Shown piece after piece: positions 421-62,014 of a stretch of DNA of 64,000 nucleotides. The notes under the pieces were generated by a model. The model was not told where the DNA came from and did not search any database. It saw nothing but the letters and a program-made list of their open reading frames with translations. The stretch comes from Stegostoma tigrinum. Its lineage: Eukaryota. Numbering within the stretch: the first letter of the stretch is position 1; each line of letters opens with the position of its first letter. A program made the position numbers and the translations under genes. The stretch spans positions 37,582,470 to 37,646,469 of the forward strand of contig NC_081359.1 of NCBI RefSeq assembly GCF_030684315.1, read 5' to 3'.

Positions 421-2526
421 CACCCCTCCATTCTAGCCCTCATTTTAGTAAATTCAGGAAGCTGAATATATATTCATTAAACCCCATTGTTGAAAAAGGG
501 ATCAACATCCGATAGACTTAATTTCAAAGGTTCGGACTTTGGGTTTAGCTCAGCTGCTTCCCTGAAAATATGTGCCAGACCATTGCAAAAGTGGTAGTGA
601 CCAATGGCTGTGTTCTAGGCAGGAGTGGAGCCAATCAGGATGAGGCGTATGGTGAACATCTGGGCTAGGAGTGGGCAGCAGTGTTGCTGTGAAGAAAGGA
701 AGATTTTTGCCTGGTCTTCAATAGAAAATGGTTGTCCTTTCATGAACCAAAGTTTATGCAGCTGTAAACCTTGCAAAACTAACTTCCAGTTGTGGTATGT
801 GCTCTCTCCATTTTGTTTGTTTACCAATTCTGGAGCGGAGTCTTACAATTGACTGCTTATTGAATAGTCCAGGAGCAACATGTCCATTTTAACTGATACC
901 AGAGATGTTTTTGGATCAGGGATCCAAAAACATTATTGATTTTGTTTCTGACACTACAGGAAATTAGTGTCCTAAATGCTCTTCATTTTATCCTGCCAAA
1001 ACACCTCTATCAAGTTTCATACTGTTACATTTTGCAAGTCAAATTAGTCTCTTCCTCATGGATGATTAATAGAGTTGAGGCAGAACGACAGTTCACCTGA
1101 CTGAATAAACTGCGTGGGTTTCCATGAAAACACACTTCCCACATTAGGCGAGGCTCCAGATGTTTTAAGTACTTTTGCTTTGGAACTTTCACAATTTGTT
1201 TTCTTAGGATGGCCCTGTTCATGCACTGACTTCATTTATCCTCATCGCTGCTCCAACTACAGCTGATACTTTTTGGCCCCTGCTCTTCTCTTGTGTAAGT
1301 CATAAAGATAGATGGAATGCAAAGCAAACGTTCGGCAGAGAGTAGAATTTGGACTCTGTTGCAACTATTAAAACAGTTGTAATAAGGTCTGATTAAAAGA
1401 GGCTAATAATTGGCCTAATTCTCATTTTAAGATGCACTGGATACCATACAGGTGAGTGGCTATCAGATTTGATTCCCTCAAGTTGCTGCCCTCAATGCGA
1501 ATGACTTTTCTTTGATATGGAGCTGGACAATGCAGGAGGTTATCTTCTGAATTCACAGCACACCAGAAGATCAACACTGGTGTTCAATTCCACTTTACTC
1601 CAGTAGCATGAGATAAAAGCTCTTAGCAACTCCCATACAACTAGGTCTTTGTTCATTGTGTAGATTGGACTTATTTTATGAATTGATATCAGTTTAGTTC
1701 ATTGTTTTCATTTTACCAAGTTCTTATCCTTCTGTTTTAATAACAGCAATTCTCTCCTTGATTTTAAGGCTGGATATTGACCTAAAGTGAAAGAAGTAAA
1801 AATCAGTTAGGATAGTAAACTGGCTACTGATTTTTTTTTTAATATTCATTTTAAAATAAAAGTCAATATCTTATCTTTTTATGTGACATGATTTCAATTC
1901 TGATTATGCTTTCTCGCTTCCCATGGAAGATTTTCAGTTCAGAATTTAAGATAAACCGAAAGTTTATATGGAGAAGTTGGTGGATCTTGCCCAAGCCTCA
2001 TACACCACATGTGCTTAATGAGGCTGGCAGAAAGATTGCAACATGTTGGTCTGTCAGTCGCAATAGTATCATACTGCGGCATATTCAAGCTTTTGTATTC
2101 AAGAAAGGCAGCTTCCTGGATGTATTTTTGTTATTCTGAAAGAATTTCCACATAAATACTCCCGGAGGTCCAGAGATAAACGTGCAAAATGTCATGTAAT
2201 TTTTCATCCTCGTTTTACCACTGTCCAACCTGCTAACATGTGCAGGTTAAAACCCCACTCTTCAACCCCAGCAACAGAAAAGCAGATGGTAAAATATCGC
2301 AGTGCACTTGTGCTATATGCGGAAAAGCAGAGTCAGCAAAAGAGTGAGGCATTTGCAATTTAATGAGTTATTCTATTAACATATTTTGTGCAGGGGGCAC
2401 CATTTAACCTTGAGCTAGGAAATGTTAGTACTATTACTAGAAGCAAACAAAAACAAACAATCAGCAGTAATAACATCATTGAAGTGTGCCACCAATTAGA
2501 TAAACCAATACCTAATTTACAATTGT

Positions 2527-3389
2527 ATCAGTGATAATGGGAACTGCAGATGCTGGAGAATCCAAGATAATGAAATGTGAGGCTGGATGAACACAGCAGG
2601 CCCAACCTCATCTCAGGAGCACAAAAGCTGACGTTTTTGGCCTAGACCCTTCATCAGAGAGGGGGATGGGGTGAGGGTTCTGGATTAAATAGGGAGAGAG
2701 GGGGAGGCAGACCGTAGGTGGAGAGGAGAACACCTCCGCTCGGTTCGCAATAAACAACTGCACCTCCTAGTCGCAAACCATTTCCACTCCCCCTCCCATT
2801 CTTGAGATGACGTGTCCATCATGGGCCTCCTGCAGTGCCACGATGATGCCACCCAAAGGTTGCAGGAACAGCAACTCATATTCCGCTTGGGAATCCTGCG
2901 GCCCAATGGTATCAATGTGGACTTCACCAGCTTCAAAATCTCCCCTTCCCCCACCGCATCCCAAAACCAGCCCAGTTCGTCCCCTCCCCCCACTGAACCA
3001 CACAACCAGCCCAGATCTTACCCTCCACCCACTGCTTCCCAAAACCAGTCCAACCTGTCTCTGCCTCCCTAACCTGTTCTTCCTCTCACCCATCCCTTCC
3101 TCCCACCCCAAGCCGCACCTCCATCTCCTACCTACTAACCTCATCCCACCTTCTTGACCTGTCCGTCTTCCTTGGACTGACCTATCTCCTCCCTACCTCC
3201 CCACCTATACTCTCCTCTCCACCTATCTTCTTTTCTCTCCATCTTCGGTCCGCCTCCCCCTCTCTCCCTATTTATTCCAGAACCCTCACCCCATCTCCCT
3301 CTCTGATGAAGGGTCTAGGCCCGAAACATCAGCTTTTGTGCTCCTGAGATGCTGCTGGGCCTGCTGTGTTCATCCAGCCTCAATTTCAT
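2527..3389. mobile_element. Two-armed Neptune-like PLE insertion, family A (left arm minus and tailed; right arm plus and tail-less)
   Basis: 18-bp TSD tacctaatttacaattgt at 2509-2526 and 3390-3407; arm junction with AGA microhomology at 2727-2729; right arm encodes the endonuclease C-terminus (MSIMGLLQC...GINVDF). Confidence 0.92.
3301..3332 (+). ncRNA. Minimal hammerhead ribozyme motif (family A, CpG-decayed stem III)
   Basis: CTGATGA-A-GGG tctagg CCC-GAAA-CATC. Confidence 0.6.
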
Positions 3390-9681: not shown

Positions 9682-11031
9682 AGTTCTTCAACTGTGTATA
9701 TGCCAAATTATTTACAGCATACTTTCAAAGCCCAACCGAGGAATTATTCTTTAAGCTAGTTACAGAAAATGAGCCAGAACAGACAGGGCATGTTAGCATG
9801 AGGGAACCTCCAGGCAACAGTAATCATGATAATAATTTTTAAGATAATTATCGAATGCATCTGACCATAAGACCATAGTACTATAATAAATAGGAGCAGG
9901 AGTAGGTCATGTGTCCCATTAAGCCTGCTCTGCCATTCAATAGGATTATGATCCAATATTCCTCATGTCCACTTTGCTGCACTTTCCCCATAAACATTGA
10001 TTCCCTCCCTGGTCAAGAATCTATCTGTCTCAGTCTTAAATATAGACAAGGACTCTACGCCCATTATTCCTTGTGGCAAGGAGTTCCAAAGACACACACC
10101 TTAAGAGAAGAAATTCCTCCTCATCTCAGAATGAGATCTAACTGATAGCTAAGTTCTGTACCCATGAGGATGTCCTCAAGCACGATCTTGGGTTCATGTC
10201 ATGCTACTCATAACCTGACCATACTGTTCTATGTAAAACTTTCCTCACTGCTCTGTTTTGACCTGATCACCTTGATAACTTGTTATTATCTCTCTACCTT
10301 AATTAGCTTGTACGGTTTTGGATTACTTGTCACTTTGGGTAGGCCCTCGTCATGTGACTCTCAGACCTACAGTGTAATTCCATGCATTTAGTTTGTCTCT
10401 GTCAAGATCCCATTTTTGACATTTCATAGTTATTAATCAGATCATAGGTCATCCCTTCACTTGCTATTCAGCTGCTGATACTTTATTCAAACTATTTGAC
10501 ACTTTTGATCACCTGCAGAGACTTGTTATTTAGCTTGTTGAAAATCCACTCCAAATGTTTGTATTTATCTTTCAACATTATTAGTTATCTGGAATTATTT
10601 TTCCATTATCTGTCTGCATGTAAATTCTGTGCAATTCCCTCCATTTCACCTGATGAAGGAGCAGCGCTCCAAAAGATTATGATTTCAAATAAACCTGTTC
10701 TACAATAACCTGGTCAACAAAATGTGAGGCTGGATGAACACAGCAGGCCAAGCAGCATCTCAGGAGCACAAAAGCTGATGTTTTGGGCCTAGACCCTTCA
10801 TCAGAGAGGGGAATGGGGTGAGGGTTCTGGAATAAATAGGGAGAGAGGGGGAGGCGGACCGAAGATGGGGCGAAAAGAAGATAGGTGGAGAGGAGAGTAT
10901 AGGTGGGGAGGTAGGGAGGGGATAGGTCAGTCCAGGGAAGACGGACAGGTCAAGGAGGTGGGATGAGGTTAGTAGGTAGAGGGGTGTGCGGCTTGGGGTG
11001 GGAGGAAGGGATGGGTGAGAGGAAGAACAGG

Positions 11032-12792
11032 TTAGGGAGGTGGAGACAGGTTGGACTGGTTTTGGGATGCAGTGGGTGGAGGGGAAGAGCTGGGCTGGTT
11101 GTGTGGTTCAGTGGGGGTAGGGGACGAACTGGACTGGTTTAGGGATGCAGTTGGGGAAGGGGAGATTTTGAAACTGGTGAAGTCCACATTGATACCATTA
11201 GGCAGCAGGGTTCCCAGGCGGAAAATGAGTTGCTGTTCCTGCAACCTTCGGGTGGCATCATTGTGGCACTGCAGGAGGCCCATGATGGACATGTCATCTA
11301 AAGAATGGGCGGGGGAGTGGAAATGGTTTGCGACTGGGAGGTGCAGTAGTTTGTTGCAAACTGAGCGGAGGTGTTCTGCAAAGCGGCCTCCAAGCCTCCG
11401 CTTGGTTTCCCCAATGTAGAGGTAGCCACACCGGGTACAGTGGATGCAGTATACCACATTGGCAGATGTGCAGGTGAACCTCTGCTTAATGTGGAATGTC
11501 ATCTTGGGGCCTGGGATAGGGGTGAGGGGGGAGGTGTGGGGACAAGTGTAGCATTTCCTGCAGTTGCAGGAGAAGGTGCCGGGTGTGGTGGGGTTGGAGG
11601 GCAGTGTGGAGCGAACAAGGGAGTCACGGAGAGAGTGGTCTCTCTGGAAAGCAGACAGGGGTGGGGATGGAAAAATGTCTTGGGTGGTGGGGTCGGATTG
11701 TAAATGGCAGAAGTGTCGGAGGATGATGCGTTGTATCCGGAGGTTGGTGGGGTGGTGTGTGAGAACGACGGGGATCCTCTTTGGGCGGTTGTGGCGGGGG
11801 GGGCGGGGCGTGAGGGACGTGTTGCGGGAAATATGGGAGACGCGGTCGAGGGCGTTCTCGATCACTTGAAGAACTTGGACATCTGGGATGTGCGGGAGTG
11901 GAATGTCTTATCTTGGGAGCAGATGCGGCGGAGGCGGAGGAATTGGGAATAGGGGATGGAATTTTTGCAGGAGGGTGGGTGGGAGGAGGTGTATTCTAGG
12001 TAGCTGTGGGAGTCGGTGGGCTTGAAATGGACATCAGTTACAAGCTGGTTGCCTGAGATGGAGACTGAGAGGTCCAGGAAGGTGAGGGATGTGCTGGAGA
12101 TGGCCCAGGTGAACTGAAGGTTGGGGTTGAAGGTGTTGGTGAAGTGGATGAACTGTTCGAGCTCCTCTGGGGAGCAAGAGGTGGCGCCGATACAGTCATC
12201 AATGTACCGGAGGAAGAGGTGGGGTTTGGGGCCTGTGTAGGTGCGGAAGAGGGACTGTTCCACGTAACCTACAAAGAGGCAGGCATAGCTGGGGCCCATG
12301 AGGGTGCCCATGGCCACCCCCTTAGTCTGTAGGAAGTGGGAGGATTCAAAAGAGAAGTTGAGGGTGAGGATGAGTTCGGCTAGGCAGATGAGGGTGTCGG
12401 TGGAGGGGGACTGGTCGGGCCTGCGGGACAGGAAGAAGCGGAGGGCCTTGAGGCCATCTGCATGCGGAATGCAGGTGTATAGGGACTGGACGTCCATGGT
12501 GAAGATGAGGTGTTGGGGGCCAGGGAATTGGAAGTCCTGGAGGAAGTGGAGGGTGTGGGTGGTGTCACGGACGTAGGTGGGGAGTTCCTGGACCAAAGGA
12601 GAGAAAATGGAGTCCAGATAGGTGGAGATGTGTTCGGTGGGGCAGGAGCAGGCTGAGACGATTGGTCGACCAGGGCAGGCAGGTTTGTGGATTTTGGGAA
12701 GGAGATAGAATCGGGCCGTGCGGGGTTGGGGAACAATGAGGTTGGAGGCTGTGGGTGGGAGGCCCCCTGAGGTGATGAGGTCATGAATGGTT
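11032..12792 (-). pseudogene. PLE RT plus GIY-YIG ORF, 5'-truncated, with a 22-nt frameshifting deletion near 11866
   Basis: TMDVQSLYTCI, QTKGVAMGT, FLRYIDD, Cys linker CNCRKCYTC, NVVYCIHCTRCGYLYIGETKRRL; deletion seen against 61586-61607. Confidence 0.93.
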
Positions 12793-13237
12793 CACCTGCA
12801 CATCTGCCAATGTGGTATACTGCATCCACTGTACCCGGTGTGGCTACCTCTACATTGGGGAAACCAAGCGGAGGCTTGGAGACTGCTTTGCAGAACACTT
12901 CCACGCAGTTCGCAACAAACTACTGCACCTCCCAGTCGCAAACCATTTCCACTCCCCCTCCCATTCTTTAGATGACATGTCCATTATGGGCCTCCTGCAG
13001 TGCCACAATGATGCCACCCGAAGGTTGCAGGAACAGCAACTCATATTCTGCCTGGGAACCCTACAGCCTAGTGGTATCAATGTGGACTTCACCAGTTTCA
13101 AAATCTCCCCTTCCCCAACTGCATCCCTAAACCAGCCCAGTTCGTCCCCTCCCCCCACTGCACCACACAACCAGCCCAGCTCTTCCCCTCCACCCACTGC
13201 ATCCCAAAACCAGTCCAACCTGTCTCCGCCTCCCTAA
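12789..13237 (+). pseudogene. PLE GIY-YIG endonuclease fragment (right arm)
   Basis: VVYCIHCTRCGYLYIGETKRRLGDCFAEH...GINVDF. Confidence 0.92.
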
Positions 13238-13462
13238 CCTGTTCTTCCTCTCACCCATCCCTTCCTCCCACCCCAAGCCGCACCCCCATCTACCTACTAA
13301 CCTCATCCCACCTCCTTGACCTGTCCGTCTTCCCTGGACTGACCTATCCCCTCCCTACCTCCCCACCTATACTCTCCTCTCCACCTATCTTCTTTTCTCT
13401 CCATCTTCGGTCCGCCTCCCCCTCTCTCCCTATTTATTCCAGAACCCTCACCCCATCCCCCT

Positions 13463-13494
13463 CTCTGATGAAGGGTCTAGGCCCGAAACGTCAG
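13463..13494 (+). ncRNA. Minimal hammerhead ribozyme motif, intact core (family A)
   Basis: CTGATGA (13465-13471)-A-GGGTCTAGGCCC-GAAACGTC; palindromic ACGT stem III; predicted cleavage after C13492. Confidence 0.75.
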
Positions 13495-13997
13495 CTTTTG
13501 TGCTCCTGAGATGCTGCTTGGCCTGCTGTGTTCATCCAGCCTCACATTTTGTTGTCTTGGATTCTCCAGCATCTGCAGTTCGCATTATCTCTGCTACAAT
13601 AACCTGGTGTCGTGTGACTTTTAACTTTGTCTACCCCAGACCAACACCAGCATCTCCACATCATAGTTTGTATTCTGAGACTATGTCCTCTGTTCCTAGA
13701 TTCTCCCATGTGGAGATACATCACCCCAGCATCTACTTCTCATTCTTATAACTCCAATGAGTAGAGTCCTGACCTGTTTAGCCTTTATTCAAGACAATCC
13801 CTCCATACTGATGACCATCCCAGTAAATCTTCACTGAACTATTTCCAAAGAAATAATATCTTGCCTTAAATAAGGAAACCAAAACTGCTCACAGTACTCC
13901 AGATATGGTCTCTCCAGCACCTTCTACATTTGCAGTAAGACGTCCCTCTTCATATTCTTCGCCTCCCTTGAAGTAAGGACAAACATTCCATTAGCCT

Positions 13998-32089: not shown

Positions 32090-32990
32090 CAATTATTTGT
32101 GGGATGTGTGTCACTTGCTGGTCAGCATTTTTATTGCCATCCTGAGATGCTCCTGAGAATGTGAAGTACTTTCTTGATCAACTGCTGTCCCCTTGCCGTG
32201 GGTTGACCCACGATTCCAAAAAGGAGGGAATCCCAGGGTTTTGTCCCAGCAACAGTGACCCACAATTCCAAAAAGGAGGGAATTCCAGGATTTTGACCCA
32301 GCAACAGTGAATGAATGGTAATATATTTCCAAGTCAGGAATGTAAGTGGCTTGGAGAGGACCTAGTAGGTGGTGGTGTTCCTATGTATCTATAGTTCTTG
32401 TCCATCTGGACGGAAGTAGTTGTTGATTTTGAAGGTGCTGCCTGAGGATCAATAGTAACCCCCAGGATATAGATATTGTCGGGGGTGGGGAGGGGTTCAG
32501 TAACGTTAACACCATTGAATTGTCTTTTATTGGTGGTGGTCAAAGCCTGGCATTTGTGTGGCACAAATATCACTTGCCACTTGTCAGCCCAAGCCTGAAT
32601 ATAGTCTTGATCTTGTTGCATTTGAACATGGACTACTACAGTCAGCTTGGCCAGTAATACTACTGCCAAACCACTCTTGGTGATGGGCGTTGAAATCTCT
32701 ATCCAGAGTTCATTTTGCACCCTTGGCCCCCTCAGTGCTTCTTCTAAGTGGTCTTCAAACTGGAAGAATACTGATTCATAAGCAAGAGAGGGCATTACAT
32801 AATAATTAACAGGTTCTTTCCTTGCCTGTGTCACATCTTAAGCCTCAAGCCTTCATGGGATCCAGAGTCAATGTTGAGGGCTTCTAAAGCAACTCCCTCC
32901 TGATTGTGTACCACTGTGAGCCACCACTGTTGAGTCCATCCTGCTAGTGGGACAGGACATAGCCAGAGATTATAGTGGTGGTAGTGATAG
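32090..32990 (-). mobile_element. Internally deleted copy of the tRNA-headed LINE (resumes at 34720-34800)
   Basis: QDQDYIQAWADKWQVIFVPHKCQA and HLEEALR motifs; 52-bp tandem duplication at 32204-32307. Confidence 0.75.
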
Positions 32991-32994
32991 GGTC

Positions 32995-34718
32995 ACTGTT
33001 ATCCTTATTTACCATCCAACGAGTATCCACATCTAAAGGATTCTTAGCCCCACTTCTGCCTCCAGCGTGATGCCACCATGAGACACATATTCCTCTCCCC
33101 TACCTTGTCAATTTTTCTCAAGGATCATTCCCTGTGGGGCACCTGGTCTACTCCTTTATTCCCAACATATCCCCACAGCCCCAAGGCACCCCGCTCCCCT
33201 GCAATCGCAGAAGATGTAACACTTGCTCATTTACTTTCTTCCTCCTTAATATCCAAGGGCCCAAACTTGTCTTGCAGGTGTGGCAGCACTTTACCTCCAC
33301 TTCATTTAATGTAGTCTACTGTATTTCCTGCTCTAAATGTGGTCTCCTCTATACTGGAAAACGAAGCATAAACTGCATGACTGCTTTGCAGAACACCGAC
33401 ATTAGAACATAGAACATAGAACAATACAGCGTAGAACAGGCCCTTCAGCCCTCGATGTTGCGCTGACCTGTGAACTAATCTAAGCCCATCCCCTTCCACT
33501 ATCCCATCATCATCCATATGCTTATCCAAGGGCTGTTTAAATGTCCCTCATGTGGCTGAGTTAATTACATTGGCAGGCAGGGCATTCTACGCCCTTACCA
33601 CTCTGAGTAAAGAACCTGCCTCTGACATCTGTCTTAAATCCATCACCCCTCAATGTGTAGCTGTGGCCCCTTGTACAAGCTGAAGTCATCATCCTCGGAA
33701 AAAGACTCTCACTGTCCACCCTATCTAATCTTTCTCTGATCATCTTGTATGTCTCTATTAAATCCCCTCTTAGCCTCCTTCTCTCCAATGAGAACAGACC
33801 CAAGTTCCTCAGCCTTTCTTCATAAGACCATCGCTCCAGACCAGGCAACATCCTGGTAAATCTCCTCTGCACATGTTCCAACAATTCCACATCCTTCCTG
33901 TAATGGAGCGACCACGTAATATTCAAAGTGAGGCTGCACTAGCATTTTGTAGAGTTGCAGCATGACGCCACGTCTCCGGAACTCAATCCCTCTACCAATG
34001 CAACCTAAAACACCATCAGACTTCTGAACAGCTCTATCAACCTCGGTGGCAATTTTCAGGAATCTATGTACATGGACACCAAATCCCTCTGCACACTACC
34101 AAGAATCTTTCCGTTGACCCGGTGTTCTGCCTTCCTATTATTCCTCCCAAAGTGAATCACCTCACATTTATTCATATTAATCTGACATTCTGTTTGCAAA
34201 AATGATCCTGAGCTTCCAGTTGCCTGCCACTTCAACATATCATCATGTTTACTGGCCAACATCTCTATGAGGCTTGCTGAAGTGTTTCAAAGAAGCTCAG
34301 CACTTGCTGGAAGAACAGCACCTCATTTTCCACTTGGGTACTCTACAGTTTTCTGGACTTTTTCAGCAATTTTAGGGCTTGAGCACCTTCCTGTCACACT
34401 AGGCATTTTTTATCACATGCTCTGCTATTACATACAACCCATTGTAGCCACTAATAGTCTCCATTAGCAGCTATTCAGTCTCCTCAGCTGATCGTTACCC
34501 ACTCGTTTGTCCAATTTTTTTCTCTTTTTGGGCTTCATGTCCACCTATCATTTACTCCTTACCTTATCCCCCTACCCCACTTTCTGCATTTAAACAAAAG
34601 TCATTTTTTCCTAATTATCACTCTGAAGAAGGGTCACTGGACCTGAAATGTTAACTCTGATTTCTCTCCACAGATGCTGTCAGACCTGCTGAGTTTTTCC
34701 AGCAATTTATGTATTGGT
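32995..34718 (+). mobile_element. PLE family C 3' portion interrupted by a CR1
   Basis: PCNRRRCNTC...NVVYCISCSKCGLLYTG at 33190-33360, resuming PELPVACHFN at 34207; hammerhead CTGAAGA-A-GGGTC actg GACCT-GAAA at 34623-34648. Confidence 0.85.
33402..34180 (-). mobile_element. CR1 (HER1-like) LINE 3' end
   Basis: (tagaaca)3 tail; LLEHVQRRFTRMLPGL...LGLFSLERRRLRGDLIETYK; NKCEVIHFGRNN. Confidence 0.93.
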
Positions 34719-34799
34719 GTGAGGTGGTGATGGCAGTGCCTGGGACATTGCCTGTAATATATCATCCTATGGATATGACTATGTCAGGCAGTTGATCGA

Positions 34800-35487
34800 T
34801 TAGCGAGTTTTGAGAAGATTTGTAGCTCAGGTTGAGGTTCTGGATGTGAGTTTGCTTGCTGAGCTGGAAGGTTAGTTTTCAGACGTTTCGTCACCATTCT
34901 AGGTAACATCATCAGTGAGCCTCCAACGAAGCGCTGGTGTTATGTCCCGCTTTCTATTTATATGTTTAGGTTTCCTTGGGTTGGTGATGTCATTTCCTGC
35001 ATTGGTGATGTCATTTCATGTTCTTTTTCTCAGAGGATGGTAGATTGGCTCCAAATCAATGTGTTTGTTGATGGAGTTCCGGTTGGAATGCCATGCTTTT
35101 AGGAATTCTTGTGCGTGTCTCTGTTTGGCTTGTCCTAGGATGGATGTGTTGTCTCAATCAAAGTGGTGTCCTCCCTCATTTGTATGTAAGGATATGAGTG
35201 ATAGTGGGTCATGTCGTTTTGTGGCTAGTTGATGTTCATGTATTCTGGTGGCTAGCTTTCTGCCAGTTTGTCCAACGTAGTGTTTGTCACAGTTCTTGCA
35301 AGGTATTTTGTAGATGACGTTCGTTTTGCTTGTTGTCTGTATAGACATTTCCGAAATGACTGCCAGACTATTCAGACCTCTTGGCATCAGGGTAGCCCAC
35401 AAACCCACCAACACACTAAAACAGCAGCTAATGAACTTAAAAGACCCTATACAGACAACAAGGAAAATGAACGTATTTATTTACAAT
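34800..35487 (-). mobile_element. Poseidon/Penelope-like PLE with a 5' inversion (35343-35487 on plus)
   Basis: NVIYKIPCKNCDKHYVGQTGRKLATRIHEH on minus; the upstream ORF part DISEMTARLFRPLGIRVAHKPTNTL on plus. Confidence 0.88.
34880..34918 (-). ncRNA. Minimal hammerhead ribozyme motif (Poseidon-like PLE)
   Basis: Minus strand CTGATGA-T-GTTACC tagaat GGTGAC-GAAACGTC. Confidence 0.75.
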
Positions 35488-39129: not shown

Positions 39130-39505
39130 ACTTAGCCATATATCCAGGCACACAGTGGCAGCAATGTTTACTAAATGCAAGTTGCACTACAACAACTCAC
39201 CAATGCCCTTTCAACAGCACCTTCCAAACCTCTGACCTGTACCATGTAGAAAGACAATGGCAACAGAATTGGGGAGCACAACTACCTGCTAGTTTGTCCT
39301 TAAGGCACACACCATACTGATGTGAACTAATTTGCTATTCCCTTACTGTTGCCAGGTTGTAATCCTGGAGCTCCATGCCTAACAGCATTGCAGGTCTGCA
39401 ATGACTGCAGTGGTTCAAGAAGGTAGGTCAGTGTCACGTCCTTGAGAGGATTTAGGGATGGATTATAAGTACTGGCCAAGCCAACAATGTTCACATCCTT
39501 GGGAA
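39130..39505 (+). mobile_element. 3' fragment of the tRNA-headed LINE family
   Basis: cacacagtggcagcaatg...gactgcagtggttcaagaagg...ggccaagccaacaatgttcacatcc. Confidence 0.7.
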
Positions 39506-39562
39506 AAGAATAGGAGGTTCCTTGACCCTCAGAAAACCAAATTTCCTTTACCTTTCTAAGAT

Positions 39563-39900
39563 CGTGGTGGTGGTAATCCAGAAACTAAGGCCAATGCTTG
39601 GGGACATGAGTTCTAAATCCATTCTGAAGATGTTAAATTTAGAATTCTCCTAAAAAACAAAAATGTTTGCAATGAAAATCTAGCCTAATGGCAAACAAAT
39701 AACTGTTATAAATTGCTGTAAAACCCAACCGGCCTGTTAACATCTTTTAGGGAAGGAAAAATGCCATCCTTACCTCATCAGATCTATATTTGACTCTAGA
39801 GCCATAGCAATGTGTTTGAATCTCAAATTTGCATCTGGTTACTTAGAGATGAGCAGTAAATGCTGGTCTAGCTAATGATGTCTACCTGTCCTGAATAAAA
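39563..39900 (+). mobile_element. tRNA-headed bipartite SINE
   Basis: taatccagaaact...ttttagggaaggaaaaatgccatccttacc...gatgagcagtaaatgctggtctagc tail. Confidence 0.7.
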
Positions 39901-40455: not shown

Positions 40456-41420
40456 TTTTTTTTAACTCACTCAGGGAATGTGGGCATTGTTGGCTCGATC
40501 AAAATGTGCTGCTTATCCCTGCTCAGCTCAAGTTATCCTTGAGAATGTAGTGGTGAGCTGACTTCTTGAACTGGGTCCTTGAGCTGTAAATACAACCACA
40601 ACTTAATTAAGGAGGGATTTCCAGGAGTTTGAACCAGCAATAATGAAGAAACAATGATATTTTCCATGTCTGGATGGTGAGGGTCCCATGCATCTGCTGC
40701 CCTTGGCCTTCTAGGTGGAAAGGGTCATGGGTTTGGAAGATGCTAAATATGGATCTTCGCTGAATTTCTGAAATGCATCTTGTAACTGGTACACACTTCT
40801 GCTACAGACCGCCATTGGTGGAGGGAGTGGATGTTTGTAGATGTGCCACTCAAACAGGCTGCTTTGTCCTGGATGGTGTCAAGCTTTTTGATTGTTGTTG
40901 GAGCTTCACTCATCTATACAAGTAGAGAATTATTCTAGCATTTTTTGACTTATACTTTCTAGATGGCAGATAGTTACTTGCTGCAGTATCCTAAGCCTCT
41001 GTCTTGTCACAATATTTAGACATTTGGTTAAATACAATTTCTGGTCAGTGGTAACTCCACTAATTGTGGAGGTTCAGTGTGGTAACTTCACTGAATGTCA
41101 AGAGACAATGTTTAGATTCTCTCTACTTGGAGATGCTCATTGTCTGGTATTTGTGTAATGTAAATGTTACTTGCCACTTTTCAGTCCAGGCTGGGGCTTG
41201 TTGCATTTGTACATACTCTGTTTCTGAGTTACATCCAAGGTATTGTGAATTATGCTGCACGTCTTGCAATCAGTGGCCAATGTACCTTTATTCTGATCGT
41301 GTGAAGGAGGAAAGTTCATTGATGAAGCAACTGAAGGTGTTTTGTCCCAGGACACTCTCCAGACCCAACCCCTCTCCTTCCTGCACATTTAAAAACTTAA
41401 CCAAGAGCTCATTGCCCACT
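40456..41420 (-). mobile_element. 3' kilobase of the tRNA-headed LINE family
   Basis: Collinear with 52280-53098 and extends into the RT segment missing from that copy. Confidence 0.8.
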
Positions 41421-43104: not shown

Positions 43105-43360
43105 GCAGGTATGAAATTTGCACTCAGAATCTATAATTTAAAACTAGCCTAATGGCAACCATGAGACAAATGTCAGTTGTTGTAAAAAAAATCTGGTCAC
43201 TAATGCCCTTTAAGGGAGGTGACCGCACAAACCTTAACTTTTACTGATCTACATGTAGTGCCAGATCCACAGCAATAGTGGTGACTCCTTTCTATCATCT
43301 GGGAAATTGATTATTAACAATAAATGTGGACACACCAAAATTTCATGAACAAATAAAAAA
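43105..43360 (+). mobile_element. 5'-eroded bipartite SINE
   Basis: aatctggtcactaatgccctttaaggga...tccacagcaat...caataaatgtgg...catgaacaaataaaaaa. Confidence 0.6.
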
Positions 43361-51210: not shown

Positions 51211-53098
51211 AGTATCCAGGTTGCTTTCACAAGACCCAGAACACAAAAGGTAAGGAGAAAAAAAAAATAACCGCAGAATTAGCCATGTGTGTCAGCATGG
51301 TGCATCTGTCGATGAACAAGCAACTTGTGAAACGGGGAACCACATCTTCAACAATGTCAGCCACTCTCCAGAAAAGGGTGTGCAGAAAGCATTCCAGCTA
51401 CCTGCTAATGAGTGAAAGTCAGTGCAGGAGACATCATCACAAAACTAGAGAAGCTGGCACCTAGATCTGCTTGCCTTCTCACTTCTACGCATATGCACAT
51501 AAGATGGTTCAGTGCCTGAGGAGTCATGACTGAGTTGAAAATTGTGCAATCATCAGTGGCCATCCCAAATTCTAACCTAATGATACAGGAAACATCATTA
51601 ATGAAACAGCTTCAAGTCTCATTTGCTCTAGAACTGTGTCATAACATCGCTGAACAGGTTCATGCAGAAAATACCTACACTGAGGAATTCCTGCAGAAAT
51701 GTACTGAGAGTGAGATGATTACCATCCACAACCAGGATATGGATCAAGAAAGATACACTCTGCTTGTGAGAAGACAAAGAAGACAGGAGTAACTTGTCAC
51801 ATTGAATGAGAGAAATTGCTCAAAACTCATCAATTTCTAACCTTGGTGACTGGGGACATTTAGATGAAACTGTTTTCTTAAACAATATATGTAAATTGAA
51901 CAACAATATAGAAAGCTAAAGCAGTGAATCTCATAAAATAAACATTGAAATTTATGCAAGGATCCTTCCAAATATTTTCCTACCTGTTTTGCCTTTAAAA
52001 CAGGGTCTTTGTACTGGGCATCAGTCAGGTCCAGAGGAAGGGGCAATGGCTTCTTACAGTCACAGAGCCGTGGCAGTGCACAACACGGAAACAGAGCCTT
52101 CATCCATGCTGACCAAATGGCCTAAATTAATCAATTCCCATTTGCCAGCGTTTGGCCCAAATCCCTCTAAATCCTTACTACTTACATACCCCATCAAAAG
52201 CCTTTTAAATGTTGTAATTTTACCAGCCTCCATCATCTCCTCTTACAGCTCATTCCATACAAGCACCACTCTACATGAAATTTTTTTTTTCAGTCGTTTG
52301 TGGGATGTAGGCATTGCTGACTGGACAGCATTGCTTGCCCATCCCAAGTTGCCCTTGAGAACGTGGTGGTGAACTGCCTTCTTGAACCACTGCAGTCCTC
52401 CTGCTGTGGGTTGATCTACAATGCCCTTAGGGAGGGAATTCCAGGATTTTGACCAAGTGACAGTGAAGGAACGATGATGTATTTCGAAGTCAGGATAGTG
52501 AGTGACTTGGAGGAGAACTTGGAGGTAGTGGTGTTCCCATATATCTGCTGCCGCTAACCTTCTAGATGGAAGTGGCTGTGTGTTTGGAAGGTGCTGACTG
52601 AGGATCTTTGGTGAATTTCTGCTGTGCATCTTGTAGATAGTACACACTGCTGCTACTGAGCGTTGGTGGTGGAGGGAGTGAATGCCTGTGGATGTAATAT
52701 AATCAAGTGGGCTGCTTTGTCCGGGATAGTGTCAAGCTTCTTGAGTGTTGTTGGGGCCGCACTCATCCAGGTAAGTGGGGAGTATTCTACCACACTCCTG
52801 ACTTGTGTCTTGTAGATGGTGGTCAGGCTTTGAGGCATCAGGAGGTGAGTTACTCGCTGCAGTATTCCCAGCTTCTGGCCTGCCCTTGTGGCCACTGTGT
52901 TTATGTGGTGAGTACAGTTAAGTTTCCCATCAATAGTAACCCCCGGGATGTTAACAGTGTGGGACTCAGTGATGGTAACACCATTGAATATCAAGGGACG
53001 GTGGTTAGATTGTCACTTATTGGTGATGGTCATAGTCTGGCATTTGTATGACGCGAATGTCACTTGCCACTTGTCAGCCTCAAACTGAATATTATGCA

Positions 53099-53223
53099 GA
53101 GATAATGGGAACTGCAGATGCTAGAGTATCTAAGATAACAGAGTGTGAAGCTAGCTGAACACAGCAGGCCAAACTGCATCTCAGGAGCACAAAAGCTGAC
53201 GTTTCGGGCCTAGACCCTTCATC
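53099..53223 (-). mobile_element. Solo tailed PLE family A 3' end, coinciding with a deletion in the host LINE
   Basis: gagataatgggaactgcagatgc...ctgacgtttcgggcctagacccttcatc; LINE sequence present after 41200 is absent here. Confidence 0.9.
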
Positions 53224-54049
53224 CACGACCGTCTTCCTACGTGACAGGTATGACTCCAATTACCGGAGTGTTTGCCCCCGATACCCATTGGTTCCAGTTT
53301 TGCTAGGGCTCCTTGATGCCACACTTGTTTAAATGCAGCCTTGATATCAAAGGTTATCACTCTCCCCTCACCTTTAGAATTCAGCTTTTTTGTCCATGTT
53401 TGAACCAAGGCTGTAATGAAATGAGGAACTGAGTGGCCTCCGCGGAACCCAGACTGGGCGTCACAGAGCAGGTTATTTATGAGCAGATGCTGCTTGATAG
53501 CACTGTTGGTGACACATTCCATCACTTTACTGATGATCAAAAGTAGACTGATGGGGCAGTCATTAGCTGGGATGGATTTGTCCTGCTTTTTGTGTACAGG
53601 ATATACTTGGGCAATTTGCCACATTGTCAGGTAGATATCAGTGTCCCCTCCTCCCACCCCAAGCCCCACACCCATCTCCTACCTACTAACCTCATCCTGC
53701 CCTCTTGACCTCCTTGTCCTCCCTGAATTGACCTATTTCCTCTACATCCCAACCTGCACTCACCTCTACTTGCTCCATCCCTGCCTCTGACCTGTCTGTC
53801 TCCCCTCCACCTATCTTCTCCTCTACCTATCTTCTATCTGCCTCACCCTGTCTCCTTATTTATTCCCCTCCCCCATTTCTGAAGAAAGGTCTAGGCCCAA
53901 AATGTCAGCCTTCCTATTCCTCACCTTGTTATTTCAGATTGTCCAGCATCTGCAGTTCCTACTATCTCAAAAACAATTCTAACCCCACTGCGAAGCCTCT
54001 TCTAAGGATTCCTACTCAGAAGAAGCTACCCTCCTCCCTCCAAAACAAC

Positions 54050-57000
54050 TTCAGTGGTTGTCTCTTCCACTACAACTTTCTTGTGATCTCTTCAGCCTTG
54101 AAACTGCTCAATCTCATCCTGAAGCAAACCGAGGGACTGCAGCCACATCACTTTTTTTTAGTACCTGCCTGCAAAACCAGATCATCCCCAATGAACTACA
54201 GTAGTCCACATTCAGGACTTCCTAACTTTGCCCCAACAGTGACAATATCTGTGTTCAGAACACTGAGACCCTTCACAAGCGTTTCTCCCTGCGACCCCTG
54301 AGACACTTACTCGCAGGAATGCGCTGGCATCTCCAGGCACTACAATCAAGCCTACCCCAGCTCAGAGCCTCCCTCTCCCAGACCTGCAAAAGACCTGTCC
54401 TGTTTTTTATTCTTCTTCAGATCCATAACCTGAACTCACATTTCTACACAGCTTTATTTGAAACTAAAAACCATAAGTACAGTAAACTTACTGGTACCTA
54501 CCACCCAAAATGGGCCTACTCCACCTCCCAAATCACCAACCCTACTCAGAACCCTCCCCACAATGTACCCGCCACCATTGGCCATGTGGCCACTATTGGA
54601 GCACCCACAGCTAATGTCACATCCTCCGCTGCCAGGCACACCACTTCTGAGACAGCGAACGCCATCGACACTGCTGCTGATGACATTTCCAAGGCTAACA
54701 CCATAGACACTGAGGACGCACCTACCATCACCCCTGCTGCCACCACCTACCCCGCTCTGCTGACCACTGACACTGCTCCACCCACCACCGACCCCAACGC
54801 AACTCCGCCCACCGCCAACGCTGATACAACTCTGCCCAGCGCCGACACTGATGCAATGCCGCCCACCACCGCCGATGCAACTCCGCCCATAGCTGATGCT
54901 GCATGGCCCACCACGAATGCTGACATCACTCCGTCCACCGCGTCTACAGCCAGCAGCTCCAGAGGAGACATCAGCACCCAGCCCTGCCGAGTCTTCGCCA
55001 TCCTCCCAGATCTCGCCCTTGCAGAGAATGAACAGTCAGTCCCCAGTAAAGGGCTAATCTTTGACCCCCTCCACCCACACATCAACGAATACCGGTCACA
55101 TTTGGACATTGAGCAATTTTTCCGCCGCCTCTGCCTCCGTGTTTACTTCTTTAACAGTGAACCTAACCCTCCCTCTACTGACCCCTTCTCCCACCTCCAA
55201 CACAGCCCCTCCTCCTGGACGCCACCCCAAGGCCTTCTACCCTCCCTCGATCTCTTCATCTCCAATTGTCGTTGAGATATCAGTTACCACAACTTTTCCA
55301 CTCCTCTCACCCAATCCATCCTCCCCCCCACAGAATATGCAGCCCTCCACTTCCTCTGCTCCAATTCCAATCTCACCATAAAACCCGCGGACAAGGGAGG
55401 CGCAATTGTAGTATGGCACACTGATCTCTGCATCGCCGAGGCCAGGCATCAACTCTCCAACACCACCTCCTACCGCCCCCTTAATCACCCGATCACTGAA
55501 CCATCATCTCCCAAACCATCCACAATCTCATCACTTCAGGTGACCTCCCACCCACAACCTCCAACCTCATCGTTCCCCAACCCCACACCGACCGCTTCTG
55601 TCTCCTTCCCAAAATCCACAAACCTGACTGCCCTGGTCGACCCATAGTCTCCGCCTGCGCCTGCCCCACCGAACTTGTCTCCACCCATCTCAACTCCTTT
55701 TTTCTCCCACTTTGGCCAGGAACTCCCTACCTAAGTCCGTGATACCACCCACGCCGTCCAGAACTTCCAATTCCCTGATCCCCAACACCTCATCTTTACC
55801 ATGGACATTCCCCATACAGGTGGCCTAAAGGCCCTCTGCTTCTTCCTGTCCCGCAGGCCCAACCTGTCCCCCTCCACTGACATCCTCATCCGCTTAGCTG
55901 AACTCATCCTCACCCTCAACAACTTTTCTTTCAATTCCTCCCACTTCCTACAGACAAACGGGATGGCCATGGGTACCCACATGGGCCCAAGTTAAGCCTG
56001 CATCTTCATAGGTTACATGGAACAATCCCTCTTCTGTATCTACACTGGCCCCAAACCCCACCTCTTCCTCCGATACATTGATGACTGTATCAGCGCTGCC
56101 CCGTGCACCCTTGAGGAACTTGAACAGTTCATCCACTTCACCAGCACCTTCAACCTCAACCTTAAGTTCACCTGGACCATCTCTAATACCTCTCTCCTTC
56201 CTGGACCTCTCTGTCTCCAGCCTCTTTGGCAGCCACCTAGAAACCGATATCTATTTCAAGCCCACCAACTCCCACAGCTACCTAAAATACACCTCCTCCC
56301 ACCTACTTTCCTGCAAAAATGCCATCACCTATTCGCACTTCCTTCGGCTCCGCCACATCTGCTCCCAGAATGAGGCATTCCACTCACGTACACCTCAGAT
56401 GTCCTTATTTTTCAAGGACCGCAACTTCCCCCCATCAGTGGTCGAAAACGCCCTCTACCGTGTCTCCTGCATTTCCCACAACTCATATCTCACACCCCCT
56501 CCCCACAATAAAAACCAAAACAGAATCCCCCTCGTCCTCACGTACCAGCCCACCAACCTCTGGATCTAACGCATAATCTTCCGACACTTCCGCCATCTGC
56601 AATCTGACCCCATCACCAAAGACATTTTTTCTCTCCCCACCCTTATCTGCCATCCAGAAGTACCACTCTCTGGAACTCCCTGGTCCGCTCCACACTTCCA
56701 TCCATCCCCAGCACTTTTCTCTGCAACCTCAGGAAGTGCTGCACCTGCCCCTATACCTCCACCCTCACCCCCATCCCAGGCCCCAAGAAGACTTTCCACA
56801 TCAAGCAGATGATCACCTGCACATCTGCTAATGTGGTATACTGCATCTGCTGTTCCCGTTGTGACCTCCTCCACGCTGGAGAAACCAAGCAGAAGCTTGG
56901 GAACCGCTTTGCAGAACACCTCCGCTCAGTTTGCACTAAACAACTGCACCTCCCAGTCGCGAACCATTTTAACTCCACCTCGCATTCCTCAGACAACATG

Positions 57001-57180
57001 GCCATCCAGGGTCCCCTGCAGTGTCACAACAATGCTACCCGAAGTTTGCAGGAACAGCATCTCATATTCCACTTGGGAACCCTGCAACCCAATAGTATCA
57101 ATGTGGACTTCACAAGCTCCAAAATCTCCTCTCCCCCTACCACATCCCAAAACCAGCCCAGCTTGTCCCCGCCTCCCTAA
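54050..57180 (+). pseudogene. PLE polyprotein (N-terminal domain, low-complexity insert, RT, Cys linker, GIY-YIG), disrupted
   Basis: TCLQNQIIP; PSKGLIFDP; IKPADKGGAIVVW; LLPKIHKPDCPGRPIVS; QTNGMAMGT; RYIDD; NVVYCICCSRCDLLHAGETKQKL. Confidence 0.9.
54720..54950 (+). repeat. In-frame degenerate minisatellite encoding Thr/Ala/Pro/Asp repeats
   Basis: TTDTAPP TTDPNATPP TANADTTLPS ADTDAMPP TTADATPP IADAAWP TTNADITPS. Confidence 0.8.
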
Positions 57181-60100
57181 CCTGTCCTTCCTCCCACCTG
57201 TCCCCTCCTCCCACCTCAAACCCCACCCTCATTCCCTACCTACTAACCTCATCCCACCCCCTTGACCTGTCCGTCCTCCCTGGGCAGAGCTATGTCCTCC
57301 CTACCTCCCCACCTACACTCACCTTTACTGGCTCCATCCCCACCTCTTTGAACTGTCCATCTCCTCTCCACCTATCTTCTCCTCTATCCATCTTCAATCC
57401 GCCTCCCCCTCTCTCCCTATTTATTTCAGAAACCCCTTCCCGTCCCCCATTTCTGAAGAAGGGTCTAGGCCTAAAACGTCAGCTATCCTGCTCCTCTGAT
57501 ACTGTTTGGCCTGCTGCATTCATCCAGCTCTACAACTAGTTATCTCCTTGTTGTAACTGTGCTGGAACAGCTTGGCTAGGGCAGTGGCAAGTTCTGGAGC
57601 ACAAGTCTTCAGTACTATTGCTGGACTGTTGTCAGGGCCGGTAGCTTTTGCAGTATCCATTGCCTCCAACTGTTTCTTGATATCACTTGGAGTGAATCAA
57701 ATTGGTGGAAGACTGGTATCTGTCATGCTGGGGATCATTTGAGTCCAAGATGAATCATGTACTCAGTACTTCTGGCTGAACATTGCTGCAAATGTTTCAG
57801 TCTAATCTTTTGCACTGATGTTCTGGGCTCTTCCATCATTGAGGATAGGAGTATTTGTGGAGCCTCCTCCTCCAGTGAATAGTCTAATTGTCCACCACCA
57901 TTCACAACTGGATGTGGCAGGACTGCAGAGGTTAAATCTGATCTGTTGGTTATGGGATCACTTCACTCTGTCTATCACTTACTGTTTTCACTGTTTGGCA
58001 TGGAAGTGGTCTTGTTTGGTGGCTTCACCACGTTGATACCTGAAGATGAGATATGCCTGGTGCTACTCCTGGCATGCCCTCCTGCAATCTTCATTGAACC
58101 AAGGTTGATCCCCTGGCTTCATTATAATGGTTGAGTGGGGGGATATGCTTGGCCATGAGGTAACAGATTGTGGTGGAATATATTTCGGCCACTGTTGATG
58201 GCCCACAGCACCTCATGGATGCGCAGTCGTGAGTTTCTAGATCTGTGTGAAGACTGTCCCATTTGGCATGCTGATTGTGCCACCCAACACAATGGAGGTT
58301 GTTCTCAATGTGAAGGTGGGACTTCATCTCTACAAGGACTGTGCAATGGTCACGCTTACTGATTCTGTTATGGGCAAATGTAACTGCAGCTGGCAGATTG
58401 GAAGGGCTGAGGTCAAGTGTGCTTTTCCCTCTTGGTTCCCTCACCAACTGCTGCAGAACCAGTCTCACAGCTGTGTCCTTTAGGACCTGACCAACTCGAT
58501 CGGTAGAGCTGTTGCTGTGCCACTGTTGGTGGTGAACATTGAAAGCCCCCACCCAGGGTACATTTTGTGCCCTTGCCATCCTCAGTGCTTCCTCCAAATA
58601 TTGCTCAGCATTGAGTACTGATTCATCAGCTGAAGGAAGACAGTATGTGATAATCAGCAGGAGGTTACCTTGCCCATGTTTAACTTGAAGCCATGAGACT
58701 TTATGGGGTCCAGACCTCACATTCAGGACTCCTAGACCAACATCCTTGACTATATACCACTGCGCCACCCCCCTCTGCTGGGTCTGTCTTGCTGGTGAGA
58801 CAGGACATATCCAGGGATGATAATTGTGGTGTCAGGCACATTGTTTGTAAGGTATCATTCTGTGAGTATGAATATGTCAGGTTGTTGCTTGAATAGTCTG
58901 TGAGACAGCTCTCCCAACTTTGGCGTGAATCCCCAGATGTTAGTGAGGAGGACTTTGCATGGTTGACAGGGCTGTTTCTGCCATTGTCTTTTCCAGTACC
59001 TAGATCGATGTTAGGTGACCCATCTAGTTTCATTTCTTTGAGTCTTTGCAGCAATTGGTGCATCTGAGTGGCTTGTTAGGCCATTTCAGAGGGTAGCTGA
59101 GAGTCTACCAAATTGCAGCGGGTCTGGAGTCTCATGTAGGCCAGACCAGGTGAGTGGTAGCAGATTTCCTTCACTGAAAGACATTAGTGAACCAGATGGG
59201 TTTTTCTGATCATTGGCAATTATTTCATGCTGATCAGTAGATTCTTAATTCCAGACATTTTTTTGAATTCCAATTCTGCCTTCTGCCATGGTGGTATTTG
59301 AACCTGGGGCACCAGAACATCAACTGGGTCTCTAGATTAATAGTCTGGTGCTAAAAGTACTAGGCCATCACCTAACCTCAGGACCTCATTTTAAATTTTT
59401 CACCTGCCCTCTAGTTTTGGACTTCACTACTCCGTGAAAAAGACCTCGACTATTAACCATATCCATTGTCAAGATTTTATAAATGTCTATTAGGTCACCC
59501 TCAGCCTTCGATCCTCTGGGGAAAATAGCCCTGGCCTATTCATCCTCTCCCTCTCGCCCAACCCGTCCAACACTGGAAACATCCTAGTAAATCTTTTCTG
59601 AAACACTTTCAAGTTCCACGACACCCTCCCTATAGCAGAGAGACCAGAATTGAATGCAGTATTCCAAGAGTGACCTGACTAATGCCCTGTACAGCCACAA
59701 CATGACCTCCAATCTCCTATATTAAATACACTGACCAATAATGGTAAGCAAACCAAATGCCATCTTCACCATCCTGACTACCTGTGACTCCACCTTCAAG
59801 GAACCCTTCCTCAGCTGTTATGGCTTCCTGATTCATTAGTATCCCCTAAGTTATCCTTTTTAGCCCTTTGTCTGGCCATTGAGATATGCCTAGTGCTGCT
59901 CCTGGCATGCCCTCTTACATTCTTCATTGATCCAATGTTGATTATAATGGTTGTGTGGGGTATATGCTGGGCCATGAGGTTACAGATTGTGGTGGAATAC
60001 AGTTCTGCCACTGTTGATGGCCCACAGCACCTCATGGATGCGCAGTCTTGAGTTTCTCGATCGGTGTGAATCTCAGCTCATTTATTCCCTTCACACAGGA

Positions 60101-60500
60101 CATCAGCTTTCAAGTGGGCTTTTACCCTGATGGACTTCATACTGTTGCTGTGGCTTCTTGGTGAGTACATCTCAAATCATTTGGTGCATTGGGATGGTCA
60201 GAAGTGATTTCATCTCAGTGGAGGTAAAACCTTTCCAGACCCAAAAAGCCAAATACTTGGTATATTTGAAAATGGACTTAGCGTATATCGAGTAAAGCAT
60301 GGGAAATTCCTGGGTGAGTGACCATATAGGTTGGTGCTAGTAGCTCCCCCTACTTTACAAGAACCCTTTCATTTTCCCAAACTTGTTCCTGGCATTGAAT
60401 TCGAGATAATGGGAACTGCAGATGCTGGAGAATTCCAAGATGATAAAATGTGAGGCTGGATGAACACAGCAGGCCAAGCAGCATCTCAGGAGCACAAAAG

Positions 60501-60532
60501 CTGACGTTTCGGGCCTAGACCCTTCATCAGAG
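60501..60532 (-). ncRNA. Minimal hammerhead ribozyme motif, intact core (family A)
   Basis: Reverse complement CTCTGATGAAGGGTCTAGGCCCGAAACGTCAG. Confidence 0.75.
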
Positions 60533-60754
60533 AGGGGGATGGGGAGAGGGAACTGGAATAAATAGGGAGAGAGGGGGAGGCGGACCGAAGATGGAGAGTA
60601 AAGAAGGTAGGTGGAGAGAGTATAGGTGGGGAGGTAGGGAGGGGATAGGTCAGTCCAGGGAAGACGGACAGGTCAAGGAGGTGGGATGAGGTTAGTAGGT
60701 AGATGGGGGTGCGGCTTGGGGTGGGAGGAAGAGATGGGTGAAAGGAAGAACCGG

Positions 60755-61723
60755 TTAGGGAGGCAGAGACAGGTTGGACTGGTTTTGGGATGCAGTGGGT
60801 GGGGGGGAAGAGCTGGGCTGGTTGTGTGGTGCAGTGGGGGGAGGGGACGAACTGGGCTGGTTTAGGGATGCAGTAGGGGAAGGGGAGATTTTGAAACTGG
60901 TGAAGTCCACATTGATACCATATGGCTGCAGGGTTCCCAGGCGGAATATGAGTTGCTGTTCCTGCAACCTTCGGGTGGCATCATTGTGGCAGTGCAGAAG
61001 GCCCATGATGGACATGTCATCTAGAGAATGGGAGGGGGAGTGGAAATGGTTTGCGACTGGGAGGTGCAGTTGTTTGTTGCGAACTGAGCGGAGGTGTTCT
61101 GCAAAGCGGTCCCCAAACCTCCGCTTGGTTTCTCCAATGTAGAGGAAGCCGCACCGGGTACAGTGGATGCAGTAAACCACATTGGCAGATGTGCAGGTGA
61201 ACCTCTGCTTAATGTGGAATGTCATCTTGGGGCCTGGGATAGGGGTGAGGGAAGAGGTGTGGGGACAAGTGTAGCATTCCCTGCGGTTGCAGGGGAAGGT
61301 GCCGGGTGTGGTGGGGTTGGAGGGCAGTGTGGAGCGAACAAGGGAGTCACGGAGAGAGTGGTCTCTCCAGAAAGCAGACAGGGGTGGGGATGGAAAAATG
61401 TCTTGGGTGGTGGGGTCGGATTGTAAATGACGGAAGTGTCGGAGGATGATGCGTTGTATCCGGAGGTTGGTAGGGTGGTGTGTGAGAACGAGGGGGATCC
61501 TCTTAGGGTGGTTGTGGCGGGGGCGGGGTGTGAGCGATGTGTTGCGGGAAATACGGGAGACGCGGTCAAGGGCGTTCTCGATCACTGTGGGGGGAAAGTT
61601 GCGGTCCTTAAAGAACTTGGACATCTGGGATGTGCGGGAGTGGAATGTCTTATCGTGGGAGCAGATGCGGCGGAGGCGGAGGAATTGGGAATAGGGGATG
61701 GAATTTTTGCAGGGGGGTGGGTG
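60755..61723 (-). pseudogene. Uninterrupted but 5'-truncated PLE ORF (RT thumb, Cys linker, GIY-YIG)
   Basis: SIPYSQFLRLRRICS...GTFPCNRRECYTC...NVVYCIHCTRCGFLYIGETKRRFGDRFAEH; no stops over about 320 codons. Confidence 0.93.
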
Positions 61724-62014
61724 AAGCCGCACCCCCATCTACCTACTAACCTCATCCCACCTCCTTGACCTGTCCGTCTTCCCTGGACTGACCTGTCCCC
61801 TCCCTACCTCCCCAACTATACTCTCTCCACCTATCTTCTTTACTCTCCATCTTCGGTCCGCCTCCCTTCTCTCCCTATTTATTCCAGTTCCCTCTCCCCG
61901 TCCCCCTCTCTGATGAAGTGTCTAGGCCCGAAACGTCAGCTTTTGTGCTCCTGAGGTGCTGCTTGGCCTGCTGTGTTCATCCAGCCTCACATTTTATCAT
62001 CCTGGCATTGAATT

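Follow-up and report, generated by a model that had tools for sequence, protein, structure and literature searches.

A tRNA-Ser-like head and sense-strand T-run avoidance in a shark Zenon LINE suggest transcription by RNA polymerase III

In the textbook division, LINEs are expressed as capped mRNAs by RNA polymerase II (Pol II) and SINEs as non-coding RNAs through RNA polymerase III (Pol III). LINEs of the Zenon clade, which is known to lack ORF1, have been published from elasmobranchs, and RhiTyp_Zenon-1, CarCar_Zenon-1 and others share with the element described here a single ORF, the absence of ORF1 and a poly(A) tail (PMC13343379). In the main text of that paper the words tRNA, promoter, polymerase and pol III are missing, as are IRES and start codon. 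The element and its absence of ORF1 are known already; its head, its T-run avoidance and its missing AUG are unremarked in PMC13343379. In the available part of PMC6740152, lepidopteran Zenon likewise has a single ORF in 3.1-3.7 kb and spawns non-autonomous derivatives made of head and tail. Persaeus, the internally deleted derivative of the moth Zenon, is described there as lacking both homology to tRNA and a Pol III promoter, whereas the shark derivative is tRNA-headed from birth. The available part of PMC5786205 describes Bov-tA, AfroSINE and CoeSINE4, which share with the shark derivatives a tRNA head followed by a LINE 5' part and a LINE 3' part; in those SINEs the head was joined to what deletion had left of a Pol II LINE, a non-coding product, whereas here a coding LINE bears the head. 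The same source reports in one sentence, on which our comparison relies, a LINE with a tRNA-like sequence, RTE-1_DAn, which is a loose precedent and, unlike Zenon, belongs to the RTE clade. In a literature search that left Repbase, Dfam and subscription papers outside, no description of a tRNA-headed or Pol III-transcribed Zenon was found; the supplement of PMC4824008 had no matching entries, and the available parts of PMC11481361 and 10.1101/788562 add nothing on a headed Zenon.

The window analysed here (64,000 nt of Stegostoma tigrinum contig NC_081359.1) contains on its minus strand a decayed full-length LINE (59377-52280), which is interrupted by a Penelope element and matches the family consensus at about 88-90% identity in three segments (59377-57549, 53644-53220 and 53100-52280). 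The start of the consensus is nearly identical by eye to RhiTyp_Zenon-1 (3293 nt) over the first 400 nt, which the comparison covers, and the window element is, judging by its sequence, a dead copy of the shark and ray Zenon LINE. A first-pass annotation had seen a decayed copy with a complete 5' end, which was confirmed, but the copy extends further than was described, past the Penelope insertion to a poly(A) end at about 52280. The features of the locus are as follows.

59284-59377, minus strand: tRNA-Ser-like head spanning consensus nt 1-95 and containing the A box at 59367-59357, the hairpin of the enlarged variable arm and the B box at 59304-59294
59090-59283, minus strand: 5' UTR body, highly conserved across shark and ray Zenons and common to the SINE derivatives; not a Deu domain by eye
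59063-59089, minus strand: predicted hairpin whose 7-nt loop resembles that of an anticodon (CU-AGC-AA in the consensus; the window copy differs by one change)
59050-59052, minus strand: in-frame GCT codon, a candidate non-AUG start (frames compared by eye)
57549-59052, minus strand: 5' part of the single ORF, with basic N-terminus, APE endonuclease (PF14529; VLLTNIWG from 58953) and linker; stops and frameshifts disrupt the frame in this copy
53645-57548, plus strand: Penelope-like element inserted in the LINE and foreign to it
53220-53644, minus strand: first part of the RT domain (PF00078; consensus 1837-2262)
53101-53219, no strand given: Penelope terminal-repeat fragment, where the RT lost about 210 nt
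52346-53100, minus strand: second part of the RT and C-terminus up to the stop codon (consensus 2471-3226)
52280-52345, minus strand: poly(A) tail preceded by a short 3' UTR, both common to the SINE derivatives
59389-59802, minus strand: older canonical CR1 fragment, the insertion target of the LINE (5' flank by tblastn, 3' flank by eye)

Both ends of the window copy are fixed, because the CR1 reading frame was found on either side, by tblastn on the 5' side and by eye beyond 52280, where it picks up again. The motifs annotated earlier were present: the A-box-like motif placed at 59357-59367 lies at 59367-59357 on the minus strand, the B-box-like motif placed at 59293-59304 lies at 59304-59294, and the APE entry, given as near 58950, begins at 58953. 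The supposed spacer of about 110 nt between head and APE consists largely of the ORF's basic N-terminus, and to that extent is coding. A separate 200-nt fragment of the same LINE (consensus 1135-1339) lies on the same strand at 59879-60070, 500 nt upstream of the head, and older fragments of the same LINE or SINE family, 67-90% similar, occur at 32095-34803, 39153-39826, 40520-41356 and 43158-43287. Penelope-like elements, with a GIY-YIG-type C-terminus and some with inverted partial copies, are found at 53645-57548, 60455-61985 and 10716-13553, and solo Penelope terminal fragments are numerous throughout the window.

A search of the shark's own genome (3.2 Gb) with the head plus APE (531 nt) gave 9947 candidates, of which 40 places were scored. 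All 40 covered most of the query and showed the same head-APE junction, at 82-85% identity to the query (self match excepted), and 31 began within its first 13 nt. Thirty aligned copies had a sharp common start with unrelated flanks upstream. The first-pass annotation had proposed counting copies in which the head joins the APE at one point, and had named a different 5' UTR in other copies as what would contradict it. When 30 loci were picked blind to the head, with APE DNA alone (a set that includes the query and several copies already seen), 18 extended to consensus nt 12 or less, 10 were cut inside the same UTR, two were cut just before the APE and none had another shared 5' sequence. The tRNA-Ser-like head is the true 5' end of the family. 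A chimera of SINE and LINE formed once only, or the chance landing of a SINE upstream of a truncated LINE, could be envisaged given that SINEs with this head far outnumber headed LINEs; it is refuted by the head-blind loci and by a junction shared among the 40 scored places, 61 distinct LINE copies and the consensuses of five other species, and we regard it as extremely improbable.

Eighteen of 20 copies fetched long extended to a common 3' end. The consensus, 3.29 kb long, has a single stop-to-stop frame of 977 codons, then about 55 nt of 3' UTR and the A tail; Pfam located APE and RT in the one ORF, and there is no ORF1. The description of the window copy as a LINE of autonomous type, with one ORF and a 5' end derived from a tRNA, holds for the whole family. 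The absence of ORF1 also stood; as a known trait of every Zenon element, headed or not (PMC13343379), it does not follow from the presence of the head. The copies were 84-92% identical to the consensus, and the family is therefore inactive in this genome. Matches to the consensus, those of the SINE derivatives among them, made up 15.6 kb (4.6%) of 340 kb of arbitrarily chosen sequence. No convincing target-site duplications were seen in 20 copies. Queries made from diverged copies to reach older subfamilies retrieved mostly the young family and yielded no old consensus, and all the consensus evidence comes from one young family in one genome. In one copy (L016; G000:C5 near 64893800-64894230) a head-and-tail SINE lies inside the APE region of the LINE, with a possible 4-nt target duplication. 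Database gene models from several sharks (P0003, P0017, P0022 and P0059) contain RT pieces of this LINE fused to host proteins and are probably annotation errors.

Homologues were found in other sharks, in amphioxus, in Hydra and in 3.5-kb contigs; no relative was found in viral contigs. In an RT tree of 28 of the 84 homologues, among which there was no named Zenon protein, the element grouped (99/98) with amphioxus and Hydra proteins, away from canonical shark CR1.

The A box (TGGCCTAGTGG) and B box (GGTTCGAATCC) of the family consensus are textbook sequences. Tested against this genome's own tRNAs (29 different sequences, covering six amino acids), the head gave z scores against shuffles of 7.7 for Ser, 5.0 for Cys, 4.9 for Thr, 4.5 for Lys, 2.5 for Sec and 0.4 for Trp, and tRNA-Ser was the best fit for the LINE head and for both SINE heads (z 7.7-8.8). 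The long spacing between the A and B boxes fits an enlarged variable arm, for which a hairpin is still predicted. ARAGORN called no tRNA in the window, and Rfam made no tRNA or IRES call on the window copy and only a sub-threshold tRNA match (14.4 bits) on a better copy, L034; SINE heads usually escape being called as tRNA by these programs. Five tRNA-Sec-like matches lie within 13 kb (L301-L303, L310 and L329; G000:C50:8359551-8372515), the best tRNA-Sec match being elsewhere, on C4. Inspected by eye over the first 400 nt, all seven published shark and ray Zenon consensuses have a head with A and B boxes, and the three from hagfish and coelacanth have none. Since the head occurs in sharks and rays and is absent from the hagfish and coelacanth elements and from Persaeus, it was likely gained in a single event before the shark-ray divergence.

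SINE families of this genome are the same head and tail with the ORF deleted. About 13 head-bearing places were seen by eye in the 340 kb, nine joining the last ~70 nt of the LINE directly, one entering the ORF and three being ambiguous. Among 112 matches to the body, which came from targeted searches and are no census, 61 were LINE, 32 short SINE, 8 long SINE and 11 other. The derivatives have at least three deletion points, and their tails begin within the last codons of the ORF. They are short (about 360-400 nt) and non-coding; the LINE, with 3.29 kb and a 977-codon frame, is thus not itself a SINE. The short SINE head resembles by eye the white-shark Zenon head and the long SINE head that of dogfish Zenon, and this match to different heads suggests that SINEs were born repeatedly from successive LINE subfamilies. 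An identity with Deu-SINEs was considered and rejected, as the body is unlike the Deu alignment in the supplement of PMC7245038 (by eye). SacSINE1 and the Deu-SINEs of sharks, in the available part of PMC5499810, are likewise tRNA-headed shark SINEs; the Zenon SINE body differs from the printed Deu domain by eye, a comparison made through the Deu alignment.

Vertebrate Pol III terminates at runs of at least four Ts and, with lower efficiency, at interrupted T-runs. The first-pass annotation had suggested a scan of the sense strand of the consensus for TTTT. No run of four or more Ts (T4+) and three T3 runs were present, compared with 13 A4+, 11 C4+ and 10 G4+ runs, a result that favours Pol III reading; the antisense strand has 13 T4+ runs. 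TTT was the most depleted trinucleotide of the consensus (o/e 0.21). Codon shuffles (n = 2000), which preserve the protein and codon use, had a mean of 12.3 T3+ runs against the three observed, and none of the 2000 was so low. No 5-mer had four or more Ts against 23.8 expected (A equivalent, 87 against 89), the shuffles having a mean of 11 and a minimum of 1. The absence of T4+ runs, taken alone, was not significant (0 against 1.9 under codon shuffling, P 0.11), and the T-depletion signal rests on the T3 and 4-of-5-T counts. A further set of 26 copies, chosen with RT DNA, showed over 2.6 kb no T4+ run and one such 5-mer against 18.7. A bias for the Phe codon TTC, taken alone, was equalled by Penelope; Phe content was low (1.7%) and was left out as evidence because P0004 has even less.

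The same counts were made in other elements. A CR1 control from the same genome, built in the same way, had 46 T3+ runs, 11 T4+ runs and 57 of the T-rich 5-mers against 47 expected, and a Penelope control from this genome, of similar T content, had 16, 5 and 21 against 19. All 80 metagenome relatives contained T4+ runs (ratio 0.64-2.3 where listed, median 1.15), nine of them with less than 25% T. No A and B boxes were found upstream of these 80 relatives, many of which are 5'-incomplete; ARAGORN at a low threshold made two calls among the 80 loci, both within coding matches, and these were attributed to chance. In the first 400 nt of the published Zenons, by eye, TTTT was absent from all seven headed elasmobranch consensuses and present in all three unheaded ones from hagfish and coelacanth. 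T-runs directly before the A tail were not clearly enriched (10 of 50 ends, against a background of 13%); copies with a T-run adjoining the A tail include L036, L038, L041, L042, L274, L279 and L292. Four presumed-RNA contig sets cover the element, and as assembled contigs they are mute on start, strand and cap. The coding RNA beats shuffles in folding in many windows (mean z -1.1; CR1 mean 0.0), which may mean constraint at the RNA level; such windows include consensus nt 481-600 (z -5.6; about 58900-58780 in the window), 1261-1380, 1501-1670, 2041-2160 and 3001-3120.

The loss is specific to the strand and to T, the footprint expected of selection for Pol III read-through. Pol III transcription is likely because a tRNA-derived promoter head is combined with an absence of oligo-T terminators along 3.3 kb, and we consider it highly probable that the replicating RNA is transcribed by Pol III. 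The head could instead be vestigial or structural, the SINE-like front end of a Pol II LINE, with T-runs avoided through surveillance of U-rich RNA, through base composition or as a relic. LINEs are regarded as Pol II units in the available part of PMC5786205, and the above-average folding of the ORF RNA indicates that other RNA-level constraints exist. Such causes fit poorly with an avoidance that is confined to sense-strand T-runs while A-runs are as expected and the antisense strand is rich in T4+ runs, that is missing in this genome's CR1 and Penelope as well as in the 80 relatives, and that tracks the head in all ten published Zenons; both boxes are, in addition, intact in sharks and rays. 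This explanation is improbable.

Pol III RNA is uncapped, and the way in which the proposed Pol III transcript might be translated was considered from the leader. Within the first 440 nt there are 12 ATGs, none of them in frame, and Met first appears in frame at codon 171, downstream of the TNIWG and ILTES motifs of the APE. Homologues open with Met and a basic leader, and a similar basic leader is present in this LINE. The gap between the hairpin and the GCT codon, both of them conserved, is 11 nt in one published consensus species and 12 nt in four, and four species have 15 or 18 nt from GCT into the ORF (all by eye); in this genome that second distance is 15 nt in 40 of 46 measurable copies. 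The GCT is in frame in four of six alignable published consensuses and out of frame in two, both from dogfish (by eye). These spacings would point to a translation start at or just past the GCT. A conserved AUG lies out of frame directly after the GCT (consensus 346), is kept in six of seven published shark and ray consensuses (by eye), and could serve as a start through frameshifting.

That AUG bears on an alternative in which the labour is split, with the Pol III RNA being copied and the protein coming from a capped Pol II or host read-through RNA, its start being reached by leaky scanning, set at a near-cognate codon or shifted into frame from the out-of-frame AUG. T-run avoidance would then be accounted for without translation of uncapped RNA, and the conserved AUG, the lack of an IRES fold and the lack of an Rfam match are in line with it. 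Scanning is unlikely, however, because of the 12 out-of-frame AUGs in the leader, and non-CpG differences past the AUG at 346 were silent in five cases for the main frame against one for the AUG frame (by eye). LINE proteins, moreover, mostly act on their own mRNA, which counts against such a division. We regard this alternative as doubtful, and cap-independent translation of some kind as more likely than not.

Dicistrovirus IRESs use an anticodon-like mimic, and GCU is their commonest first codon (available parts of PMC10516663 and PMC12221177); a review, in the part available, floated such IRESs in LINEs and gave no case (PMC3894237). The shark leader resembles these type 6 (dicistrovirus intergenic) IRESs in having no in-frame AUG, a predicted anticodon-like hairpin beside the candidate start, and a GCU there. 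The AGC of its predicted 7-nt loop, CU-AGC-AA, is complementary to the in-frame GCU. This pairing, spotted post hoc, is of 3-4 bp only and has no covariation, and in contrast to the type 6 IRESs as described in the same available parts, no PKII/PKIII, L1.1, SLIV or SLV layout appeared in the helix listing of the 5' body and no Rfam IRES matched at E<=10 (window copy and copy L034). Folding of the 5' body was ordinary against shuffles (z -0.9 to +0.5), and one compensatory change (G-C to A-U) was seen between LINE and SINE consensuses in another helix of the body. The loop after the B box (consensus nt 85-103; about 59294-59276 in the window) is complementary over 7 nt to a hairpin loop of the body (216-225; about 59165-59155), a possible kissing-loop. 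A new type 6 IRES subtype is possible, and a type-6-like mimic is a speculative idea that we think rather unlikely to be correct.

Taken as a whole, we assign a probability of roughly 0.6 to the reading in which full-length Zenon RNA is made by Pol III and doubles as messenger and retrotransposition template. TFIIIC, TFIIIB and Pol III would initiate at nt 1, and Pol III would read through the 3.3 kb and the A tail and halt at the next genomic T-run. T-runs would have been purged because copies carrying them internally could not replicate. Ribosomes would enter the uncapped RNA internally and independently of AUG, guided by the conserved 5' body, and begin at the GCU codon or just after, and the encoded protein would bind the 3' tail and perform target-primed reverse transcription. 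The internal promoter would thereby be recopied into every full-length insertion, and internal deletions retaining head and tail would yield ready-made SINEs. A stronger version is tentative and on balance unlikely, namely a vertebrate mobile gene that codes for protein wholly independently of Pol II, transcribed by Pol III from a tRNA-Ser promoter that it captured and translated from a dicistrovirus-like IRES that mimics a tRNA and needs no AUG, cap or initiator tRNA, lasting through the shark-ray radiation and repeatedly spawning SINEs by internal deletion.

Pol III normally makes only small non-coding RNAs, and its transcription of a protein-coding element would be unusual. If true, a long-lived LINE selected for Pol III readability would break the polymerase division between LINEs and SINEs, and its RNA would be a vertebrate example of a natural mRNA made by Pol III, requiring a cap-independent translation signal. 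The T-run test is cheap and may be applied to whole repeat libraries to find similar elements. Pol III RNAs were found to retrotranspose without ORF1 (available part of PMC2666806), and the shark element bears on that process. Deletion of the ORF would give a direct path to the birth of SINEs, and the LINE offers an origin for one conserved SINE body, a question left open in the available part of PMC5786205.
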